From an uncultured Chloroflexia bacterium (GTDB taxonomy: Bacteria; Chloroflexota; Dehalococcoidia; GIF9; UBA5629), in assembly GCA_963751585.1 (NCBI GenBank), contig CAVVVB010000003.1, positions 8,667-72,666 of the forward strand: a DNA stretch of 64,000 bases, in the 5' to 3' direction. The notes under the pieces are model-generated. The model ran no database searches. It was not told the DNA's origin and worked only from the letters and a program-made list of their open reading frames with translations. Position 1 is the first letter of the stretch; each line of letters begins with the position of its first letter. A program made the translations under genes and the position numbers. Below, in pieces: positions 973 to 41,308 of the stretch.

Positions 973-3129
973 TTAAGAACTGAGACTGGCTTTGGCCTGG
1001 CTAGTTCTCGTGGCGCTTATAATGCCACGCAGGCCCTGGATTTTGGCCAATAACTGAGTTAACTGTGCCATGCTGGTGATTTCAATGGTAGCGAATATTG
1101 AGGTGACCTCATGGTGATATGTGCTGCTCATACTGGATATATTCACCTTGTTCTCAGCGATAACAGTAGTGACATCGCGAAGCAGGCCCACTCTATCCCA
1201 GGCATCTACCTGGATATCCACCGGATAGACGTCCTGAATCTCTCCCCAGCTTACTTCGATGAGTCGCTTCTTGTCCTCGACATTTATGACGTTTATGCAT
1301 TCCTTGCGGTGTACCGTAATTCCGTGGCTCCGAGTAATATAACCTATGATGTGGTCGCCTGGCAAGGGATTGCAGCAACGGGCTAATTGGGTAAGCAAGT
1401 CACCTACGCCTAGGACCTGAATTCCTGCCGTAGTCGTCTTTTCTGCCTTTGCGGTTTTGGTTATGTCCTTGGTTTCTTCTGGTTCCACCGCCAGCTTGAG
1501 CGCTAACTGGTGCGGAGTGACGCCGCCGTAGCCAATGGCGGCCAAAAAATCGTCGGGGTTTTCGTAGTTGAATAGACGCGCCGTTTCTTCAATGTTGGTT
1601 ATGGTTATGCCCAGCCGTTTGAGGTCTCTATCCAGAATCTGCCTGCCGCGTTCGATATTCTGTGTCCGCTCTTGTTTCTTAAACCATTGCCTGACTTTTT
1701 CTCGGGCGTGCGAGGTCTTGATAAAGCCCAAGTCAGGATTGAGCCAGTCAAGGCTGGGTCCTCTGCTGACTTTGGTGGTCATAATCTCGATGATATCGCT
1801 GTTTTTCAGCTCGTAGTTTAGCGGGACTAGTCTGCCGTTGACTTTAGCGCCTATGCAGCGATGCCCCAGCTCGGTGTGGATACGATAGGCGAAATCAAGA
1901 GGTGTGGCGCCCTTGGGCAGCGCTTTTATTTCACCTTGGGGGGTATAGACAAAGACCTGGTCGATAAAAACCTCTGTTTTTAACGATTCGAGAAATTCCT
2001 CGCTCCCGAGCTCTCCCTGCCACTCGATTAGCTGGTGTAACCAGGCAATCTTGTCTTCAAATTTTGTGTCTTCGCTGGAACCCTCCTTATAACGCCAGTG
2101 CGCGGCTATACCGAAAGCAGCCGTCCGGTGCATATCATAGGTACGGATTTGAATCTCCAGCGGAGTTGTGCCCTGGCATAATACAGTGGTGTGCAATGAT
2201 TGATATCCGTTATCTTTAGGATTAGCGATAAAGTCGTTGAACTCTTCCGGAAGCGGATGCCATAGGTTGTGGATGGCACCCAGCGCTTTGTAGCAATCCG
2301 GAATTGTGTCTACCAGCACCCGAACAGCGAACAAGTCATGAATATCGCTGAAGTCTCTGCCTTGCTCTGCATAGCGGTTAAGTTTATTGTAAATACTGTA
2401 AAAATGTTTTGGTCTGCCTATGATTTCTGCCTTTATATCGGCTTTGTCTAACTCTTGCTTCAATGTTTTAGTGATCTCGGTTATGAATGTCTCTCGCTCG
2501 GCTCGGCGAGCCGCTATCAGCCGGGCCACTTTGTGATATTGCTGTGGCTCTAGATAGCGGAAGGCTAAATCTTCCAGCTGCCATTTTATTTGCCAGATAC
2601 CAAGGCGGTGGGCTAAAGGCGCATATATCTCCAGTGTCTCCTGCGCGATGCTCCGCCGTTTTTCGGGTGACAACGCTCCAAGGGTATGCATGTTGTGTAG
2701 TCGGTCGGCCAGCTTGATGAACACCACTCTCAAGTCCGCGGCCATAGCGATCAACATTTTTCGCAGGTTTTGAGCTTGGGATTCGCGTTTGCTGGCTTCA
2801 CCGCGATGCAAAGATAGTCTGCCCAGCTTGGTAGTGCCATCAACCAGTTTGCTCACTTCCGGGCCGAACTTAGCTTCGATTTTGGACAGGGGTATTCCGC
2901 AATCTTCGGGGACATCGTGCAGCAAAGCTGCGGCCAAGGTAGCAGCGTCAAGCTGGAGGTCAGCTAGCGTGATAGCCGTCTGTAATGGGTGTTCCATATA
3001 AGGATCGCCAGACTTTCGCAGCTGCCCCTTATGGGCATTCAGAGCAAAGTCGTAGGCTGACTCAATTAGAGCAATTTTGCCTGCAGGCATATATTCTTTG
3101 GCTTTTTCTATGAGGGCACCGGCGTCCAT
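973..3129 (-). CDS. rel: Bifunctional (p)ppGpp synthetase/hydrolase, RelA/SpoT family
   Basis: 718 aa. An N-terminal HD hydrolase region (HDVPEDCG), a RelA/SpoT synthetase domain, and TGS and C-terminal ACT-like regions are all recognisable in the translation. Confidence 0.95.
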   Translation of the reverse strand: MDAGALIEKAKEYMPAGKIALIESAYDFALNAHKGQLRKSGDPYMEHPLQTAITLADLQLDAATLAAALLHDVPEDCGIPLSKIEAKFGPEVSKLVDGTTKLGRLSLHRGEASKRESQAQNLRKMLIAMAADLRVVFIKLADRLHNMHTLGALSPEKRRSIAQETLEIYAPLAHRLGIWQIKWQLEDLAFRYLEPQQYHKVARLIAARRAERETFITEITKTLKQELDKADIKAEIIGRPKHFYSIYNKLNRYAEQGRDFSDIHDLFAVRVLVDTIPDCYKALGAIHNLWHPLPEEFNDFIANPKDNGYQSLHTTVLCQGTTPLEIQIRTYDMHRTAAFGIAAHWRYKEGSSEDTKFEDKIAWLHQLIEWQGELGSEEFLESLKTEVFIDQVFVYTPQGEIKALPKGATPLDFAYRIHTELGHRCIGAKVNGRLVPLNYELKNSDIIEIMTTKVSRGPSLDWLNPDLGFIKTSHAREKVRQWFKKQERTQNIERGRQILDRDLKRLGITITNIEETARLFNYENPDDFLAAIGYGGVTPHQLALKLAVEPEETKDITKTAKAEKTTTAGIQVLGVGDLLTQLARCCNPLPGDHIIGYITRSHGITVHRKECINVINVEDKKRLIEVSWGEIQDVYPVDIQVDAWDRVGLLRDVTTVIAENKVNISSMSSTYHHEVTSIFATIEITSMAQLTQLLAKIQGLRGIISATRTSQAKASLSS

Positions 3130-3246
3130 CTCAACCCCCGCTATGCTAGTTATGATAATGCAAACAAAGGAGCAGATGCAAATATGAATACATGGCGGTT
3201 AGCTTCACTTAGGAGCCTACTCTACCATCGCCCAACAGCCCGCTCT

Positions 3247-3296
3247 TGACAATATCAACTATTGGATTATATACTTTGTTGAGTATAATACTCAAC
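3247..3296 (+). promoter_or_regulatory. Promoter region of the rrf2-cysK-cysE operon overlapped by a perfect 11-bp-arm palindrome (candidate Rrf2/CymR operator)
   Basis: cTTGACAatatcaactattggattaTATACT, followed by TTGTTGAGTAT-A-ATACTCAACAA (3273-3295), lies 17 bp upstream of the regulator gene start. Confidence 0.55.
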
Positions 3297-15908: not shown

Positions 15909-16781
15909 TCATGTATATAACTTTACAAAACCCGCCTTAAAGTCGGTATGTTTCATGCCAAGCAAAACAAGAATAGAAGCACGTACAAGCGCTCTTCCGG
16001 CTGTGCGTGTCTCTTGGGCATTCGCCTCACTAAGTCGTGATAGTTGGCCGTCATGAAAGCCATCATTTCTTAACTTATAGAGATCATTAAGCCTAGGAAT
16101 CGCGGGAAACTGTTGATCCACGAGCAATGACTCCACTTTTTGAAACTTATTTCCGGGCTTGCCTAGAAAATTTGCCTGTGACTCAAGACATACCCAATTC
16201 AGAGCAGCTTCAACCAACGGTCTTCCGATCTCGAATTCTCGTAGGGCACTAAAAAACCACTGCATCGCCAAACGAAGTCGCGTTTCTTCAATTGTTGGAA
16301 TAATACTTAGTGCTTTCTCGAAGTTGTCTGTCGCTTTATCGGGCGGTGCAGCAAGTTCATGAAATCCCTCGCCACCTGTAACAAAGGCTAGAGATGAAGA
16401 CCAGTCTGCCACAGATTTTCTTGTTTCCCTCCACAAATATTGACAGCTCCCGCCAAAATAAATAGACGTGAATGCAAGTAAATCATCTATGATAGTCCTA
16501 TCGCTGGATGGTTCAAAAACGGAATCATTAGGAGGGATGCCGTAATATTCGATCACTATCGCTGCGTGTTTGAGACAATAGTCCACATCTGAAATTTGTG
16601 CTTTGGGAGTTAGAAGGGGATTAAATCCATAGGAAGATTCGTAAGAGAAATCACTTGGTTTTAGGATATACCAATTTCTCTTACTTAAAAATGGTGCAGC
16701 AAACTTTGTCCACCAGATTGTATGTGGCGCATTAACTATGTATCTAATGAATGGTTTGGGGGCCGTGACAATCTGTGTCAC
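15909..16781 (-). CDS. Hypothetical protein (island cargo)
   Basis: 290-aa ORF in the low-GC insert. No family recognised by eye. Confidence 0.5.
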   Translation of the reverse strand: MTQIVTAPKPFIRYIVNAPHTIWWTKFAAPFLSKRNWYILKPSDFSYESSYGFNPLLTPKAQISDVDYCLKHAAIVIEYYGIPPNDSVFEPSSDRTIIDDLLAFTSIYFGGSCQYLWRETRKSVADWSSSLAFVTGGEGFHELAAPPDKATDNFEKALSIIPTIEETRLRLAMQWFFSALREFEIGRPLVEAALNWVCLESQANFLGKPGNKFQKVESLLVDQQFPAIPRLNDLYKLRNDGFHDGQLSRLSEANAQETRTAGRALVRASILVLLGMKHTDFKAGFVKLYT

Positions 16782-16935
16782 AATGCACTCTCGTAATTAG
16801 GTCGGTCACTTATACAAGTTATACTGTTGGTCTTACACGTCAGTTTACCATGCTGTGATCGGCGCAACAACTGCTGCTGAGCAATAGAAGGCAACAAATA
16901 GCCAGAAGGTGACATTTGTAACCGTTGGAGAAAAC

Positions 16936-17832
16936 TTAATTATTTAATAGCATTCGCCTCATTTGTTTGACTTTTATGTTCCAGCCGTTCTTTTCAATTG
17001 CGCTGTGTAATTGCTCGATATTCTTCTTAGCTAATTGAGAATATCCTCCGGCAACAACAATGCCTTCTACACTACTTTCATCGCGGGCAATAAGAATGCT
17101 ATTAGGCATGGGGTCATCGGTATTATCAAATAATCCGAGTTGCTTTTTTTGCTCGTAATTTTTTTGGTAGCAGGTTGCGTAATCATTGATATGTTCTCTG
17201 ACGTGTTGAACGTAGTCGTTTACCTGTTTGCCTGCCTTCTCCCGAAGTTCTGGATTTCTTCCCAGCTTAATCTCAAGGACAACGAAATGATACTTTCCTG
17301 TCTCTCCACGTTTTAGTGCTAACAGGTCAACTCTAGCCCAATTGAGATGGTCCGCGACCTGGCGGTCAATGATAAAAAAATCAGGGTTAGGAGGGTTATC
17401 TGTAACGATGACTTGCTCCATCGTTATCTCTTCACCATTGTGCACCTTTCGTATCTGCCCACTGATGCGATCCAGATGATTCCTCTGAAAGAAGCGATGT
17501 AACTTGTCGCTTTGGATATTGAAACTAATGTATTCTCCACTAAATCGCCGGTTTAAAGAACAAGCTTCAAGCTTTTTATATATGTCATCAGAGATAAATT
17601 TCTTGTGTATCTTCGCTGTGTAGGTTCGACTCATCGTTTTTGGTGTTACCTGGGCAACTGAATTACCTTGGTAGTAAATATTGAAGCAATCCTGCCGGAT
17701 TTGAAGGTTGTATTCTTCATTCGAATTATTGATGAGTTTGACAACAGGTTTGAGGTCTTTCTTTATCATCTCCCAATCTTCATCCACGTGGCTAAAGAAA
17801 CGGTCAATAGTTCGTATGTAATTTGTGCTCAT
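16936..17832 (-). CDS. Hypothetical protein with a PD-(D/E)xK-nuclease-like motif (island cargo)
   Basis: 298 aa. The region FFIIDRQVADH...GKYHFVVLEIKLG fits a D...(E)xK restriction-endonuclease-fold active-site pattern. Confidence 0.45.
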   Translation of the reverse strand: MSTNYIRTIDRFFSHVDEDWEMIKKDLKPVVKLINNSNEEYNLQIRQDCFNIYYQGNSVAQVTPKTMSRTYTAKIHKKFISDDIYKKLEACSLNRRFSGEYISFNIQSDKLHRFFQRNHLDRISGQIRKVHNGEEITMEQVIVTDNPPNPDFFIIDRQVADHLNWARVDLLALKRGETGKYHFVVLEIKLGRNPELREKAGKQVNDYVQHVREHINDYATCYQKNYEQKKQLGLFDNTDDPMPNSILIARDESSVEGIVVAGGYSQLAKKNIEQLHSAIEKNGWNIKVKQMRRMLLNN

Positions 17833-17859
17833 TCTTTCCTCCTAAGAGTGGCGATAAGA

Positions 17860-19149
17860 TTACAGGATTAATTCCTGACCATCATCAACTAGGATAACAT
17901 TAGAGAACATCTCATTGAACCTTTCGGGATAGAAAGTGTGGATCGGGATAATGAATCTCGGTTTAAGAGCTTCACTGATATCTCTCAAATGCTGAAGAAC
18001 GGCATGACCACTTGTGTGTATCTCCGATAATTCAATACCACGTTCAGCTAAAAACTCAGGCAGATTATTTCTTTCAAGATACCCGTGCCACATCGAGTAG
18101 ACAGTTGTCGCTTCACCACACTTGGTTATCAAGCTACGGTAGAACCGATTATCCTTGGACAGGACGACTTTATTTTCAGGCTCGATGTAAATCTCCTTTG
18201 GTTTTATCCTATGCTTGGCATATTTATACAGGAGCTGTTCATCCAGTTTCGCCAGTTTTTGGGCATGGTGATGAAGAAAGAAGACCCGCACGTTGTCCCA
18301 ATTGAATTGGGGGATATTCGGTGACAAGTCACGGAGCTTTTCAAGAACGAATGCCGTATACAAGTCTATTATGAAAGTTCTATCGGACTTCTTTGCTGCT
18401 CGATATATAGATACGATGCGATCTAGGTTCTGCGACGATGTAAAGACAAAGCAGATTTTCTTATCGACTCGCATCTTGTGAACCAGTGCTTCTTCAACAG
18501 AGGTTTCGTCAGGATAAAGCCCCTCTTCTCTACCGATCATCGAGCCTTCCATGATCAGATAATCTATGTTCTCAGGAGGTTGCTTTATCAACCTTTCAAG
18601 TAAGATCTTTTTCCTTCCGTGACCGCGGAAATCACCCGTATAGAATATCCTCTTCTGGTCATGTTCTATGAGAAATGCAGCGGCGTCAGGAGCAGAGTGA
18701 TCCATGAGATATGGAGTGATGGTGAAACCGCTGATTTTAAAAGGTCTCCACATCATAAACGTTTTGATATTAACAACATTGATATTAGCTTCGATGAAGA
18801 GGTTTGACACTTCAGCTAATGACTTGGTTCCCCTGCTCATATATATGGGGATATCCGGTTGAACGAATTGCAGGAATCCATAGTGGTCTTGATGGGCATG
18901 AGATAATAGTACCGCTGAAACAGGTGATTGACTGGAATTATAAAGGCCTTCGATAGCAGGTAATATCTTAAGATCGATCAACTGTTGAGCACTTTTCCCT
19001 TTGTGTACGCTCCACTCGAACTGTGTCCTGTCCGATTTTACTAGGGGCATACCAAAGTCTAGAATCAGTCGCGCGCCAGTAGAGTCGGAAGATATTTGGA
19101 CACAGCTTCCCCCGATTTCATGGGTGCCACGATGAATCGTGAGTCTCAC
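17860..19149 (-). CDS. Metallo-beta-lactamase-fold hydrolase (island cargo), possibly a nuclease
   Basis: 429 aa. The HxHxDH motif (LLSHAHQDHYGFLQ) and a downstream FYTGDFRGHG (Asp motif) are typical of MBL/beta-CASP-type enzymes. Confidence 0.7.
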   Translation of the reverse strand: MRLTIHRGTHEIGGSCVQISSDSTGARLILDFGMPLVKSDRTQFEWSVHKGKSAQQLIDLKILPAIEGLYNSSQSPVSAVLLSHAHQDHYGFLQFVQPDIPIYMSRGTKSLAEVSNLFIEANINVVNIKTFMMWRPFKISGFTITPYLMDHSAPDAAAFLIEHDQKRIFYTGDFRGHGRKKILLERLIKQPPENIDYLIMEGSMIGREEGLYPDETSVEEALVHKMRVDKKICFVFTSSQNLDRIVSIYRAAKKSDRTFIIDLYTAFVLEKLRDLSPNIPQFNWDNVRVFFLHHHAQKLAKLDEQLLYKYAKHRIKPKEIYIEPENKVVLSKDNRFYRSLITKCGEATTVYSMWHGYLERNNLPEFLAERGIELSEIHTSGHAVLQHLRDISEALKPRFIIPIHTFYPERFNEMFSNVILVDDGQELIL

Positions 19150-35409: not shown

Positions 35410-36060
35410 TTACTCCAGCGGCATACGTAGTACCATCTTGGCCAGGTCCCAGCAGTGCTCGTACAGGTGAAGCCCCTTGCTGAAGGCTATAAGATTGCCG
35501 TCGTCCACCCCGATCTCTTTCGCCATATATTCTTTCAGCAGCTGCAGGCCGCCCAGGTTGGTGGGGAAACCGCCCCATAAGTCCCAGCTCCTGAAGTAGA
35601 GAATGAAGCTCAGTCGTCCGTCCTGCACCCTGGTATCCACTACCCTGAGACATGGCGGGTCTTTCAGGTAAATGCTGTTCCGGCTGCCGACGGTCATGCA
35701 CATCTGGTTGGTATCGAAGCCCAGCTTATAGCGCTTGATGACCTCGTCTATTTGCTCGGCCAGGTCTTCGCCGTAGGTGTACTCCTCGTTCTCCTGCTTG
35801 GCGGCCGTCATCAAATAAGACATATATTCCTCGATGACCTCATCCGTAGTCGGCGCCGGCACGCCGGAGGGCACGTCCGGCCGTAACGGTCTCACCCCGG
35901 GATTGCGGATGGTGATGGAAACAAGAGGTATCTCTTTGCGGTGCGTGCCCTCGAAACTCCCTTGCTGTATCAGATATGTCCTGCCCTCCAGCAAGGCCTT
36001 GTTGAGACATTGGAACCAGGCGTCTCCGATGGTGAGTGCCTGAATTGCTGTCAGCTCCAT
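35410..36060 (-). CDS. Thymidylate-synthase-family protein (short archaeal-type ThyA-like)
   Basis: Catalytic PPC motif and C-terminal half (PPCLRVVDTRVQDGRLSFILYFRSWDLWGGFPTNLGGL...GLHLYEHC). The ATG at 36060 (GGAGG RBS), internal to track ORF 35410..36192, gives about 216 aa. Confidence 0.7.
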   Translation of the reverse strand: MELTAIQALTIGDAWFQCLNKALLEGRTYLIQQGSFEGTHRKEIPLVSITIRNPGVRPLRPDVPSGVPAPTTDEVIEEYMSYLMTAAKQENEEYTYGEDLAEQIDEVIKRYKLGFDTNQMCMTVGSRNSIYLKDPPCLRVVDTRVQDGRLSFILYFRSWDLWGGFPTNLGGLQLLKEYMAKEIGVDDGNLIAFSKGLHLYEHCWDLAKMVLRMPLE

Positions 36061-36916
36061 GTGCAACCTCCGGTCGGGGGTTTTCTGGTAGCCATAAGTA
36101 TACCAAAAACCTTCTGCTGGCAGTACCCCGATGGCGGCACGCCAATCGGGGTCGGGGCCTACGGCCTTTCGCCCGGCATTTCGACAAGTCATAGATGCCT
36201 GGCAATAGCTATAGCTGGTTATCTGGTTTCTCGATTGTGCAATGAGTTGATTGCCGGTTGTAGATGGCGTTCAAAACTTCCAGTGTTTCACGGTTGGTAA
36301 TCTCTTTGGCAAGGTCCGGTGTTGATTGCACGGCATTGCCCCAAAGCCCTTTACAAATTTGACGGCAAATGCTATCGTTAATATAGAATCACGATGAGAG
36401 GCCAACCAAAGGGTTCCGTCCCGCGGTAATGCCTCTCTTTTTAGTTTAGCCTCTCTTATTGACTTCCCTACCATCGCTCACAATAATGAGCATGTACTCC
36501 ATGATTGGAGCATTAAGCAATAATTGCCTCTGCTGAGAGATTCATTGAGAAGTAGTGGTAATTCTGGGGATTAAGGAGAAATATCCTGAATATTGCAGTG
36601 TTATTTACTGCTTTCGCAGTATTTTGTACTGCATCACTTCCAGAAGTGAACAATGTCTTTGGGTACTCAACTGTGCTTGCGCCAGCCCGAAGCTCGTAAT
36701 ACCCTTTCAGAACCATCTTGTTATGGCTCACCTCCTGTGGCCCTAAAGTTTACTTAGAGAAATATCACATAAGCGGACCAATAGCCACGATTATCATGCA
36801 ATTTTCACCACCACGCCAATTGTCATACGTCTTGTCGGCGAGCTTTCGACGTTGTAGAATAGGGCAATCTGAAAAGAGTTGAAAACCGACACCGCAGCTT
36901 TGTCGAAGAGAGACAA

Positions 36917-38224
36917 TTGGCAGCTCTTGGGAGATTGATCTTGAGTCAAACAGTTTTAAGGAGAGAATTACCAGTATCAACTGACGAAAAGGCATTAATA
37001 CGAGGTTTTATCTTTGCCTGCACCCAAAACAGCGAGCGCGAATGCCTAAGTAGACTTCTCTTCGCGACGGAGAAATTGTATGGACCAGTGGTTATCAGAA
37101 TAAGGGAAGGCGATCTACTTTTTTTGCATAACCTAGATACAGGAATTTTGCATGGGGTATTCAAGGCAGTATCGAATGGCAGTTTCAACATCCAGGCTAA
37201 CGCATTCGGGGGAAGGTATCCTTACCAAGTTAGAGTTGAACCTATTGGAGAAACGATAAAGATTGCCGGCGCAGAAAAAATACTAAAATACTTTGGTGTG
37301 AATAGGAACAACCCTCTATTCAGAAAGAAACTGTCAGATTTGTTGGCTGCTTTTATTCAGCCTGGCCAACCCGCTCTTGAGACTATGTCAAATATGAATT
37401 CCACGAGGGATCTAATAGCACGTGAGATAGAGAATATACGCAGTAGCGGGGCCAAAATAGACATTGATGATGAAATATCCCTAATCGAGGCTACAACCTT
37501 TTGGGATTTTCCTAGACAAAGCTACGGCCTAACCTCAAAAGGTGATAATAGATATGCTGGTGTCACTCCTGCCTTAATAATATACAATCTCGTGTGGAGA
37601 TATACTGCGCCCGACGATCTCGTTGTTGATCCTATGTGTGGGAGCGGTACAACGATCGACGTTTGCAAAGAAGAAAAAAGAAGGGTAATCGGATATGACA
37701 TAAAGTCGACAAGGCCGGACATTATCAAGAATGACGCGAGGCATATACCTCTTGATGATAATTCCGTGGATATGGTTTTTATAGATAGCCCTTATGGCGA
37801 TAATATCAAATATAACGAGGAGTCAGCTAACATAGGTAATATTTCAAGCGAGTCAGATGAATTCTACGACGAGTTAGAACAGGTAATGAGGGAATCACGT
37901 AGAATTTTAAAGGAAGGCAAGGTATTGGGTTGGTTGATCGGCGACCAATGGGTTAAGAAAAAGTTCACCCCTGTTGGTTTTAAGATATACGAGAGGTTGT
38001 GCAAGCACTTTGAACCTGTTGACATGATTTGTGTTTCAAGAAGAGGCCAATCCTCCAATACAGGAGTGTGGCAGAACAGGGCAAGAAGGTTTAATTTCTA
38101 CCTGAGGGGATTCAAGTATTTGATCATAGTACGAAAGATAACCGCTACGAATATTTCAGAGAAGCCCCGAAAGATTACATGGGGGAGATATGCTAGAGGT
38201 GGGGAGACGAACAATGAATATTGA
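36917..38224 (+). CDS. DNA methyltransferase (N6-adenine/N4-cytosine class) with an N-terminal DCD/PUA-like domain. The start codon is uncertain.
   Basis: C-terminal MTase motif I (VVDPMCGSGTT) and motif IV (FIDSPYGD). The N-terminal 200 aa (GFIFACTQNSERECL...LFLHNLDTGILHGVFKAVSNG-FNIQANAFGGRYPYQVRV) match the DCD-domain consensus. Confidence 0.85.
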   Translation: MAALGRLILSQTVLRRELPVSTDEKALIRGFIFACTQNSERECLSRLLFATEKLYGPVVIRIREGDLLFLHNLDTGILHGVFKAVSNGSFNIQANAFGGRYPYQVRVEPIGETIKIAGAEKILKYFGVNRNNPLFRKKLSDLLAAFIQPGQPALETMSNMNSTRDLIAREIENIRSSGAKIDIDDEISLIEATTFWDFPRQSYGLTSKGDNRYAGVTPALIIYNLVWRYTAPDDLVVDPMCGSGTTIDVCKEEKRRVIGYDIKSTRPDIIKNDARHIPLDDNSVDMVFIDSPYGDNIKYNEESANIGNISSESDEFYDELEQVMRESRRILKEGKVLGWLIGDQWVKKKFTPVGFKIYERLCKHFEPVDMICVSRRGQSSNTGVWQNRARRFNFYLRGFKYLIIVRKITATNISEKPRKITWGRYARGGETNNEY

Positions 38225-38885
38225 AGATCTGTTTAAAATATATCAGACCAAGAAGGCCCAATATGGCGCTGAAGCGTACAGACACATATCAAGCGTTCTG
38301 AAGGAAGCCAAGAAGCAGCACGAAAAGGAGTTTACGGGTGTTGATCACGAGCAATCTTGGAAAGGGTTCAAAGGTAATGCATTAGAGGGTTTAATCTTAC
38401 ACATAATAAATGATGAAATAACGAGCTTGGGACTGAAAATAGTGAAGGGCAAGAAATTTGAAAGAACTAAGCCTGAAAACTTATCAACCGAACTTAAACA
38501 CGTTAAGAAGAACTTGTCGATAGATTTTGGCAAGTTCGGATTTCATACCCCCGATGTGGACTTAGTTATTTTTGATCCGAAGACATATAAAGTAATAGCC
38601 GTTCTCTCGAGCAAAGTGACCCTGCGCGAAAGAATCACGCAAACGGCTTACTGGAACTTGAAGATGAAGAATTACGAGTTAACGAATCACATAAAGGTTT
38701 ATTTCGTTACTCCTGACGAAGATGGGACGCTTACGATTGCGAATCCGGCTAAGAAGGGAAGAGTAATTGTTGAAGTCGACACCGACGGAAGCTATGTACT
38801 GAGTGAGAATGAGGTGGAAGAAAGCGACAAGGTGAAGATGTTTGATAGGTTTATTGATGATCTGAAACGTGTCTCAAGGAAGTAG
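38214..38885 (+). CDS. Putative restriction-endonuclease-like protein (PD-(D/E)xK candidate) partnered with the MTase
   Basis: About 224 aa. The ATG at 38214 overlaps the MTase stop. A candidate active-site region is HTPDVDLVIFD...VLSSKVTLRER. No recognisable family otherwise. Confidence 0.4.
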   Translation: MNIEDLFKIYQTKKAQYGAEAYRHISSVLKEAKKQHEKEFTGVDHEQSWKGFKGNALEGLILHIINDEITSLGLKIVKGKKFERTKPENLSTELKHVKKNLSIDFGKFGFHTPDVDLVIFDPKTYKVIAVLSSKVTLRERITQTAYWNLKMKNYELTNHIKVYFVTPDEDGTLTIANPAKKGRVIVEVDTDGSYVLSENEVEESDKVKMFDRFIDDLKRVSRK

Positions 38886-38907
38886 ATGACCCTGTAGGGC
38901 GGCGACT

Positions 38908-40758
38908 ATGTTTGATATAAACAAATTCAGGAATATCCAAACTGCAAATAATAGGTACGATAGGCGTATTAAGGCGCTTAAGTCCGAGGGCAAAGATGTG
39001 AAATGTATTGAGAAATCGGTTGCAGATGTGCTAAGTAATATAAGCGCCGGCATAACTTCATTTGTTATATACGGCGACCCCCAAAGTGGAAAAACAGAGA
39101 TGATGGTAGCCTTGACTGCAAAATTACTTGATTCAGGATACAAAATAGTTGTTATTCTGATAAAAGATGATGTCGAGCTGCTACAACAAAATCTTGGGCG
39201 CTTTGCTCGATCAGGTATTGATCCCACACCAAGAAGTTACGTTGAGATTATTGAACCTAGTGTGAACATTGAGAATAAGGAATGGATTATCTTCTGCAAA
39301 AAGAATCTCTACGATCTAGAGAAACTAGTATCTAAAATCGGCGGTGCGCCTGGTAAAGTTATTATTGATGACGAAGCGGATTATGCAACTCCAAACTCGA
39401 AAATAAATACGGATGAAAAGACGAAAATAAACGAACTTGTAGGGAAGTTGCTGGGCCAAAAATGGATTTATATAGGTGTCACTGCGACACCAGCAAGATT
39501 AGACCTAAACAATACATTTGAGAACGCTAACGACCATTGGGTCAATTTTCCAAACCATGAATTGTACACAGGACAGGAAGTTTTTTTCCCAATCAATCTC
39601 GGTTCCACCCTAAAATATATGCTTAATATATTACCCGACAAGTATGATGATCCTTCGTATCTAAGGCAGGCGCTATTCAGTTACCTAGTCAACGTAGCGT
39701 ACTTAAATGTGAAGGTTAATGATAAAGAGACGAACTATTGCATGTTAATCCACACTAGCGGCAAGAGGGTAGACCACACGGAAGATTACAAACAGGTTAT
39801 GAATGTGTTTAACGTTTTGGGTAATCCAGATAATGAGAAATATGGAAAATATATAAAAAAGATTTGGGAAATGGCAAAGAAACGTTACGGAACACAGGAT
39901 ATTGCGGATAGAATTACCCGTTATATAATCTCGAATATTTCGAGGAATAAGATCGTGGTGATGAACACCGATACAGACAGAAAAAATATCGATTTCTCCA
40001 CAGCTACCAGTCCAGTGAGCATTTTTACTATTGCAATTGGGGGGAACATAGTATCTAGGGGAGTAACCTTTAACAATTTATTAGCCATGTTTTTTACTAG
40101 AGATGTTAAGCACAAAATCCAGCAAGATACCTACATACAAAGAGCACGAATGTTTGGAGAGCGTGGAGCTTATCTGAAATATTTCGAGTTAACCATACCC
40201 CAAACATTGTATTTGGATTGGCAACGTTGCTTTGTGTTTCATAGACTGGCACTCGAGTCAATAAAAAGTGGAAATGTGCCGGTGTGGCTAGAAGATAAAC
40301 GGGTGAGCGCAGTTTCTGCATCGAGCATTGATAAAACAACGGTAGCTATGGATAGCGGCGAGATGAGCTTTGAGATTTTCAATTATGGAAATGACATTGA
40401 AAGAATTATCAAGGATCAGTCTAAGAAGTCCTTAGAGAAGCTAAAGATCCTTCAAGGAAGACTAACTAGCGCAAAGATTCCAACATACTTGGTTAGTTTT
40501 ATTGAGCGGTTTAGTCCGGATGGGAATAATTCTCTTGCCATTCATCCGTCTATAGATATATCAAATAGAGGCGCTGATGTGGATAAAAAGAACATTTCAA
40601 GGCCTAGAGGCCTCATAGGCAATAGCGAACTGGAAGAAGCAAAATATCCGCACGCGGTTCATCATATAAAGATATTTTACAACAACGAAAAGAAAGCCCG
40701 GATTTTTTATAGGTATGTCGGGAGCATTAGATTTCTAAAGAATCTAAAGGGATCGTGA
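38908..40758 (+). CDS. Z1-domain-like / SF2-related P-loop ATPase (restriction-system-associated)
   Basis: 616 aa. Walker A YGDPQSGKTE, Walker B/DEAD-like IIDDEADYA and a motif III-like VTATPARL. There is a long C-terminal region without obvious motifs. Confidence 0.55.
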   Translation: MFDINKFRNIQTANNRYDRRIKALKSEGKDVKCIEKSVADVLSNISAGITSFVIYGDPQSGKTEMMVALTAKLLDSGYKIVVILIKDDVELLQQNLGRFARSGIDPTPRSYVEIIEPSVNIENKEWIIFCKKNLYDLEKLVSKIGGAPGKVIIDDEADYATPNSKINTDEKTKINELVGKLLGQKWIYIGVTATPARLDLNNTFENANDHWVNFPNHELYTGQEVFFPINLGSTLKYMLNILPDKYDDPSYLRQALFSYLVNVAYLNVKVNDKETNYCMLIHTSGKRVDHTEDYKQVMNVFNVLGNPDNEKYGKYIKKIWEMAKKRYGTQDIADRITRYIISNISRNKIVVMNTDTDRKNIDFSTATSPVSIFTIAIGGNIVSRGVTFNNLLAMFFTRDVKHKIQQDTYIQRARMFGERGAYLKYFELTIPQTLYLDWQRCFVFHRLALESIKSGNVPVWLEDKRVSAVSASSIDKTTVAMDSGEMSFEIFNYGNDIERIIKDQSKKSLEKLKILQGRLTSAKIPTYLVSFIERFSPDGNNSLAIHPSIDISNRGADVDKKNISRPRGLIGNSELEEAKYPHAVHHIKIFYNNEKKARIFYRYVGSIRFLKNLKGS

Positions 40759-40761
40759 CCG

Positions 40762-41202
40762 ATGAGTACGGCGTCTTTCTTTCATGGTGCAGCGCTGATA
40801 AGAGTCATTCGCCACGAATTATTCAGTTCAATAAGAGTATATACAAATAATGATTGCTCCTATTTAGTAAATGATTCTTCAGGTATTTACATAAAGTATT
40901 CACAAAAAGCACTTACTCCATGGAGTTTTACCTTTTCTCAAGATCATGTTCATGAGATAGGCGAGATGAACCAGCGATTAGGACAAGTGTATGTCGTCTT
41001 AATATGCAACGAAGACGGTATTTGTTGTCTCAATTGGCAAGAATTTGCCACAGTGATTTCAACGGAAAGCAAGACGTATCCTAAATGGATTTCAGTCTCG
41101 AGAATGAAGGGCGAGAAATATTCTGTGTGGGGCAGAGACGGCGAGTTAAGGCATAAAGTAGGAAACATCGATTTCCCACGGAAAATATTTGAGACGGTGT
41201 AG
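40762..41202 (+). CDS. Hypothetical protein (island cargo)
   Basis: 146-aa ORF 3 bp after the ATPase gene, with the same low GC. No family recognised. Confidence 0.4.
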   Translation: MSTASFFHGAALIRVIRHELFSSIRVYTNNDCSYLVNDSSGIYIKYSQKALTPWSFTFSQDHVHEIGEMNQRLGQVYVVLICNEDGICCLNWQEFATVISTESKTYPKWISVSRMKGEKYSVWGRDGELRHKVGNIDFPRKIFETV

Positions 41203-41279
41203 AAGCCGTCACGACTTGCCGAAAATCGAGTAGTGCCTTTTGTTCTCCCCTAGTAACGGCACGTTGTTAGCAACAGCGG

Positions 41280-41308
41280 TTGACATCCCTAATTCGCGTA
41301 ACTACAAT
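41280..41308 (+). promoter_or_regulatory. Consensus promoter TTGACA-17-TACAAT at the right island boundary
   Basis: ttgacatccctaattcgcgtaactacaat reads as -35 and -10 with 17-nt spacing. Confidence 0.45.

Follow-up and report, generated by a model that had tools for sequence, protein, structure and literature searches.

A DCD-methyltransferase fusion from an uncultured Chloroflexia bacterium as a candidate sole modification enzyme of a CCGG-type restriction-modification cassette

Prokaryotic DCD domains were described by Bell, Wolf and Koonin in 2020 as EVE-like domains of the PUA superfamily, which occur fused to methyltransferases with the gene of a PD-(D/E)XK nuclease next to the fusion, and which are also found fused to McrB-like and PD-(D/E)XK domains (BMC Biol 18:159, PMC7641849). 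Experimental work on the prokaryotic DCD-methyltransferase fusions was not found in the literature, where the later papers merely cite the 2020 survey. Here, a fusion of this kind was analyzed, which is encoded by the open reading frame (ORF) at positions 36917..38224 (+) of a 64,000-nucleotide stretch of DNA from an uncultured Chloroflexia bacterium (GenBank assembly GCA_963751585.1, contig CAVVVB010000003.1, positions 8,667 to 72,666 of the forward strand). This whole stretch is referred to as the window. The window protein belongs to the group described in 2020, with the same N-terminal DCD domain, Rossmann methyltransferase and downstream PD-(D/E)XK nuclease, and its architecture was already known. 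The published group and the present set of homologues also share a distribution that is weighted to archaea and to thermophilic or anaerobic bacteria.

The present analysis goes beyond that description in several respects. The nuclease is assigned to the BsaWI/CCGG family, and the methyltransferase to a permuted PF01555 core that lacks a target recognition domain (TRD). In addition, the fusion is more widespread than "rare", with an orphan subgroup rich in Nitrososphaera, and it has a sister system that contains two methyltransferases and no DCD domain. The identity of the protein as a DCD-methyltransferase and its role in restriction-modification can be assigned with near certainty. The explanation proposed as a whole is that the ORF would encode the only modification methyltransferase in a Type II cassette of the CCGG type, acquired by horizontal transfer, in which the DCD domain takes the place of a partner enzyme; we give this explanation an even chance.

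From its first TTG, the ORF runs through 435 codons without interruption to a single terminal stop. The start may be at any of three TTG codons in the same frame (36917, 36935 and 36941), and the gene call of NCBI uses the one at 36941, which gives a protein of 427 amino acids (aa). Because conservation among the homologues starts at residue 27, the choice among these codons leaves both domains intact. The Pfam models of both domains score above their cut-offs, where Dev_Cell_Death (PF10539) matches residues 30-109 with an E-value of 1.3e-18 (67.5 bits, cut-off 27.8) and N6_N4_Mtase (PF01555) matches with an E-value of 3.9e-23 (83 bits, cut-off 26.7).

A search over 5.8 billion proteins gave 2,103 matches (clusters), and among the 120 matches listed, all 120 have both Pfam domains, with protein lengths of 402-488 aa and identities of 63-71%. 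A scan of species-representative genomes showed that the full-length fusion is encoded in 247 species of archaea and bacteria. Among isolates, Thermodesulfovibrio sp. N1 (NZ_MAVV01000054) is one that has the gene. The locus statistics given below were obtained from 80 genome loci fetched from these 247 matching species; both domains are kept in all 80 loci, and in 68 of them the fusion is recovered as one single tblastn segment. The initial annotation had raised the possibility that the fusion is an artefact of ORF calling, which is contradicted by the intact ORF and by the full-length presence of both domains in the homologues. The same annotation had called the arrangement rare in prokaryotes. 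The fusion is indeed uncommon, but it is not obscure, considering the 247 species, the more than 2,000 clusters and the publication in 2020. In the collections of sequenced plasmids and phages, the full-length fusion was not found, and only distant matches to the core were obtained. The DCD domain itself is present in 1,143 representative clusters of related DCD proteins; besides the fusion, tandem DCD, DCD-AAA ATPase and DCD-DUF4357 proteins were found, as were DCD-methyltransferases that are more divergent.

The gene downstream of the fusion, at 38214..38885 (+), overlaps the methyltransferase gene by 11 nucleotides and encodes a Type II restriction endonuclease of the BsaWI family with 223 aa (PF18643, E-value 2.3e-32). 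Its motifs are PDVD (38550-38561, +), S-x-K (38607-38615, +) and a continuous R-E-R (38625-38633, +), and no variation is seen at D114, D116, S132, K134, R138, E139 and R140 in either subgroup of relatives. The window nuclease shares with BsaWI (W/CCGGW; PDB 4ZSF) the C-terminal catalytic domain, the PD..SxK arrangement and a continuous R-(D/E)R at the aligned position; the motif region aligns with SK..RDR of BsaWI, and the direct similarity to BsaWI is very weak (phmmer E-value 0.45). In BsaWI, the residues R169-D170-R171 read the CCGG tetranucleotide (PMC4652773). Because the nuclease motifs align with SK..RDR, in which RDR reads CCGG, the target of the cassette would have a CCGG core. The nuclease gene lies directly downstream of the DCD-methyltransferase gene in 50 of the 80 loci, and no other conserved neighbor was found across these loci.

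The sister system without a DCD domain has the gene order M1 > R > M2, where R shares about 69% identity with the nuclease of the window. M2 has 225 aa and no DCD domain, is 63-67% identical to residues 191-407 of the window protein and keeps the conserved basic C-terminal segment of the core. M1 (423-433 aa) is a TRD-bearing enzyme of the PF01555 type, with motif I near its N-terminus, an insertion of about 170 aa and the motif IV TSPPY; its sequence matches in the PDB include cytosine-N4 enzymes. In one of 56 such metagenome loci (L088), the M1, R and M2 genes occupy the positions 581-1882, 1879-2547 and 2601-3278, respectively. At this one sister locus, M2 is followed directly by a gene for a 353-aa protein with a RelA/SpoT domain (L088:3332-4393).

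The occurrence of M1 differs clearly between loci with and without the DCD domain. M1 is present in 68 of the 71 evaluable loci without DCD, whereas the 54 nuclease-containing DCD loci all lack it, and the three exceptions without M1 resemble truncated or frameshifted loci of the DCD type. In the DCD-less set, the gene order is M1 > R > .. > M2 in 56 loci and M1 > R without M2 in 5, and there is no locus in which M2 is the sole methyltransferase. A homologue of M1 is also absent from the island in the window that contains the fusion gene. The DCD domain and M1 are, consequently, mutually exclusive across about 125 loci, which is a result beyond the 2020 description and the most useful new point of this analysis. 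In a neighbor-joining tree of the cores, a DCD-less clade (49 tips) is separate from the DCD clade, and the nucleases of the DCD-less systems nest in a subclade of the more diverse DCD-linked nucleases.

The pattern of DCD and M1 suggests that the bare core is not enough as the sole protector of the genome and that the DCD domain makes it enough. In the proposed mechanism, the DCD domain would replace the partner enzyme and let the minimal core protect the genome alone. After replication, the domain would bind the methylated base on the parental strand, and the core would be held on the hemimethylated sites. One polypeptide would then keep all sites methylated, and unmethylated incoming DNA would be a poor substrate. 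This tethering of the core by a reader domain, together with the maintenance-like kinetics that we infer for it, is a tentative proposal that we place somewhat below an even chance. A hemimethylation-directed or modification-coupled activity, as suggested in the initial annotation, is plausible and agrees with the comparative result.

The pairing of a TRD-bearing methyltransferase with a small one in the sister system is similar to that in DpnII (DpnM and DpnA) and BcnI (M.BcnIB and M.BcnIA). DpnA and M.BcnIA are small second Type II methyltransferases, which have the specificity of the main enzyme and can act on single-stranded DNA (PMC5974420). In the sister system, M1 and M2 are both derived from the PF01555 stock, and M2 fits, as does the window core, the "topology E" of M1.BcnI. 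Unlike DpnII and BcnI, the window system has one methyltransferase, and this enzyme differs from DpnA and M.BcnIA in having a DCD domain. In 2002, Vilkaitis et al. reportedly found bcnIA to be dispensable.

In eukaryotes, UHRF1 reads the methyl group of the parental strand through its SRA domain, which has a PUA-like fold, and thereby directs the methylation of the daughter strand by DNMT1. Among prokaryotic enzymes, Type I methyltransferases such as EcoKI prefer hemimethylated DNA. In contrast to UHRF1 and DNMT1, the proposed model would combine the reader and the writer in one Type II polypeptide, and the base would be N4-methylcytosine (m4C) or N6-methyladenine (m6A), not 5-methylcytosine (5mC). 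Between these two bases, m4C is the more likely product, because M1 has the TSPPY motif and its PDB matches include cytosine-N4 enzymes, and m6A on an outer base is possible. In the most specific form of the model, the DCD domain would serve specifically to read the methylated base that its own enzyme produces, probably m4C in the CCGG-core site, which would make the protein a self-sufficient maintenance-type enzyme. We consider this specific form doubtful. To our knowledge, no reader domain for m4C is known.

A different coupling of the two domains was put forward by Bell, Wolf and Koonin on the basis of their survey of DCD neighborhoods. In their model, the DCD domain reads a different modification that already exists on the DNA, the methyltransferase adds a supplementary methyl group, and the nuclease cuts where this has not occurred. 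Domains of the same fold bind m6A, 5mC or 5-hydroxymethylcytosine elsewhere, as in the YTH proteins and VcaM4I, which is consistent with such a function. However, the DCD loci have the nuclease as their sole conserved neighbor and no conserved gene that could introduce a first modification, and the absence of M1 from 54 of 54 DCD loci with a nuclease is also a point against this model. Moreover, the nuclease family is defined by BsaWI, which cuts plain W/CCGGW as a Type II enzyme, and a nearly identical core works without any DCD domain in the sister system. We regard the reading of a different, pre-existing modification as unlikely. VcaM4I (EVE-HNH) and YTH-McrB of Thermococcus gammatolerans are Type IV nucleases that share the PUA-like reader fold. 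Their reader directs the cleavage of modified DNA, whereas the DCD domain in the window is fused to a protective methyltransferase, and the family of the window nuclease cuts unmodified DNA.

Several observations weigh against the proposed role of the fusion as a sole, reader-tethered protector. The literature yields no direct ligand evidence for a prokaryotic DCD domain and no biochemistry for any DCD domain, and the structural model of the full-length protein is mediocre, with a predicted local distance difference test score (pLDDT) of 67 and a predicted template modeling score (pTM) of 0.50. Hexamers with a CCGG core are not depleted in the window and 890 kb of related loci, where the observed/expected ratios from a Markov model are 0.70-0.81 for ACCGGT and 0.85-1.03 for the other CCGG-core hexamers. 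CCGG sites are not enriched upstream of the fusion genes either, and none is found upstream in the window. Since CCGG-core sites are neither avoided nor enriched upstream, the target sequence is without independent support. A strictly hemimethylation-dependent enzyme would also be hard to establish after transfer, yet the family is spread across archaea and bacteria. Finally, the two locus sets were sampled in different ways, the DCD loci via the methyltransferase and the DCD-less loci via the nuclease, a bias that limits what the trees can say about gain or loss of the DCD domain.

The DCD domain comprises residues 27-150 (36995..37366, +), as supported by PF10539, the AlphaFold2 model and Foldseek. 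Its motifs are RGFIFAC at residues 29-35, ERECL at 40-44, GDLLFLHN at 65-72, LHGVFKAVSNG at 78-88 and YPYQVRV at 101-107. All the motifs by which the initial annotation had recognized the domain were found, with small differences such as FAC-T instead of FMC-N. In the 80 loci and the window sequence, the residues C35, C43, F69, L70, N72, G80, F82 and A84, as well as G99, Y101, P102, Y103, Q104 and V105, are at least 95% conserved. The mean identity is about 50% in the DCD domain compared to about 75% in the catalytic core, which indicates that the DCD domain evolves faster. Its retention in 80 of 80 loci with signature residues conserved at this level, the orphan copies included, indicates that the domain is functional.

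The AlphaFold2 model of residues 24-160, computed with a diverse DCD alignment, has a pLDDT of 92.9 and a pTM of 0.86. In the Foldseek search of the PDB, the top matches of this model are the archaeal PUA-like proteins MJECL36 (2p5d) and PH1033, with a probability of 1.00. Many YTH domains, among them those of Mmi1, MRB1, Pho92 and YTHDF2, are matched with template modeling (TM) scores of 0.64-0.70, and VcaM4I, a modification-dependent nuclease, is matched in its reader domain with a TM score of 0.60, in both cases with a probability of 1.00; the TM scores of the DCD matches range overall from 0.60 to 0.70. The DCD profile also reaches MJECL36 (2p5d) by sequence, with an E-value of 0.003. From the sequence and the model, the N-terminal domain is predicted to be a genuine DCD domain, a PUA-like beta-barrel of the YTH/EVE type. 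The PUA-like fold proposed in the initial annotation is thus borne out by the Pfam score above the cut-off, the pLDDT of the model and the YTH/EVE-like Foldseek matches, and an unrelated fold is contradicted by the PUA-like relatives that both Foldseek and the DCD profile retrieve.

The DCD domain is followed by a variable linker at residues 151-185 (37367..37471, +), which is poorly conserved in a 35-sequence alignment (A1) and has one predicted helix at residues 160-175. The full-length model has two segments of low confidence, residues 153-156 and residues 182-216, the second of which extends into the core. The DCD-less paralogue M2 begins where the conservation resumes, at about residue 186.

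The methyltransferase core, at residues 186-410 (37472..38146, +), is matched by PF01555 in two stretches in swapped order. It contains a motif X-like segment FWDFPRQSYG (37499-37528, +), motif I DPMCGSGTT at residues 238-246 (37628-37654, +), motif IV DSPY at residues 290-293 (37784-37795, +) and, near the C-terminus, the conserved basic segment NFYLRGFKY (38093-38119, +). Motif IV has Ser in the position of the first Pro, and in the same 35-sequence alignment its residues D290, P292 and Y293 do not vary, with S291 nearly invariant. In the 80 loci and the window sequence, 106 of 250 core positions are at least 95% conserved, and the Type II methyltransferase models of PADLOC score up to 78.7 bits on the core. 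In the comparison with the beta-class enzyme 2zie, residues 279-348 correspond to residues 36-104 of 2zie, and residues 214-272 to its residues 217-275. The core is, on these alignments, predicted to be a circularly permuted PF01555 enzyme without an inserted TRD.

The core does not have the beta-class order, in which motif IV precedes motif I. Its linear order is the S-adenosylmethionine (AdoMet or SAM) region and then the catalytic region, and its C-terminus is a conserved basic segment of about 60 aa with no distinct TRD. The initial annotation had assigned the core to the gamma class, and this stands as far as the linear order is concerned, with motif I before motif IV, but not for the homology, which is to permuted PF01555 and not to the gamma-type families. 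A better description is available in "topology E", exemplified by M1.BcnI and M4.BstF5I, in which the SAM motif lies before the catalytic motif at a distance of less than 100 aa, the TRD insertion is absent and detection is via profiles of the beta/alpha type (bioRxiv 10.1101/2023.12.13.571470). By this description, the core fits topology E, as its spacing from motif I to motif IV is 52 residues, it has no TRD and it is detected by PF01555.

The absence of a TRD insertion and the short spacing between motifs I and IV also allow for another function of the DCD domain, namely that of an anchor to DNA or RNA independent of modification, or of a substitute TRD, which would add affinity or specificity in analogy to the PUA and THUMP domains of RNA methyltransferases. 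Such a function explains the exclusivity between the DCD domain and the TRD-bearing M1 equally well, and the best full-length structural match, Trm11, is an RNA-binding THUMP domain joined to a Rossmann methyltransferase. However, M2 is about 65% identical to the core and has the same basic C-terminal segment, which indicates that the sequence recognition is probably in the core itself. By fold, the DCD domain is closest to dedicated readers of modified bases and not to classical PUA domains, and its conserved signature residues would be consistent with a defined pocket for a ligand. An anchor or a surrogate TRD is, in our estimate, rather improbable.

The DCD-methyltransferase gene is an orphan in 30 of the 80 loci, mostly of Nitrososphaera, where it lies amid ordinary host genes. 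In these orphan loci (about 30 within L041-L079; e.g., L065 and L068-L075), host genes such as a PhoU-like gene and others are found downstream, and the DCD signature is fully conserved. The absence of an adjacent nuclease in 30 of 80 loci would be compatible with the protein, or at least its orphan copies, being an RNA methyltransferase, for example of the N2-methylguanosine (m2G) type, whose DCD domain binds RNA. The weak matches to the UPF0020, Trm11 and Trm14 models point in the same direction, as does the prediction by Bell et al. that eukaryotic DCD domains bind RNA. The fold search with the full-length model retrieved generic Rossmann methyltransferases with TM scores of 0.3-0.4, with Trm11 at the top, which has little bearing on the choice between DNA and RNA because the model is mediocre. 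On the other hand, the score of PF01555 is 83 bits compared to 29 for UPF0020, the PADLOC models of Type II DNA methyltransferases score up to 78.7 bits, the reading frame overlaps that of the nuclease in the window, and no fixed difference in the DCD domain separates the orphan copies from the nuclease-linked ones. An RNA methyltransferase is considered very unlikely.

Another possibility is that the DCD domain senses free methylated nucleotides, or the methylation state of the cell, and switches the methyltransferase or the cassette on or off allosterically. Two preprints of 2025-2026 on defense systems that sense N6-methyl-dAMP (m6-dAMP) give this idea some basis, and in one of these systems (PUA-Cal-HAD) the sensor is a PUA domain. 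In the present loci, however, there is no conserved effector or abortive-infection partner, the promoter region shows no enrichment of putative target sites, and the anticorrelation with M1 speaks for a catalytic rather than a signaling role. A sensor of this kind appears highly improbable. Autoregulation of the gene through its own sites was a separate candidate, which was dropped; the region from −300 to +60 contains 0.48 CCGG per locus compared to a background of 0.68.

The coupling of a reader and a writer explains the inheritance of methylation in eukaryotes and is undemonstrated for the methyltransferases of bacterial and archaeal restriction-modification systems. The present family is a compact and widespread test case, which occurs in at least 247 species, including soil ammonia-oxidizing archaea with orphan copies. 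It also provides natural controls, as the core with a DCD domain is the sole methyltransferase in one system, and the core without it stands beside a second methyltransferase in the other. If the DCD domain does read the product of its own enzyme, the protein would be a prokaryotic counterpart of UHRF1 and DNMT1 in a single polypeptide. If it reads m4C or m6A in DNA, it would also open the plant DCD domain to biochemical study for the first time. With respect to annotation, such genes are to be named as Type II modification enzymes of CCGG-family systems and not as generic "DNA methylases".

In the window, the fusion is the first gene of a four-gene cassette, all on the same strand, which occupies a low-GC island of about 5 kb (36300..41300). 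The GC content is 0.40-0.44 in the island compared to 0.53-0.59 in its flanks. The island is flanked by a thymidylate-synthase-like gene and an SCP2 gene, and no tRNA was found within 30-46 kb of it. Upstream of the methyltransferase gene, a region of about 700 bp (36200-36916) is AT-rich and contains just two short minus-strand ORFs (67 and 72 aa), which have no Pfam matches. One of these ORFs is also a called gene on a 2.3-kb Logan contig (L081).

The thymidylate-synthase-like protein is encoded at 35410-36192 (−), adjoining the island, and is similar to the methanogen-type ThyA TIGR03283 with 99 bits, which is under the cut-off of 174.55. It was considered as a source of a modified base and rejected, as it is ThyA-like and not conserved beside the fusion elsewhere. 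A second low-GC stretch of the window, with a GC content of 0.41-0.44, is located at 15909-19149 (−). It contains two genes for proteins of 290 and 298 aa with no Pfam match and one for a 429-aa protein of the metallo-beta-lactamase fold, and it may be another acquired island.

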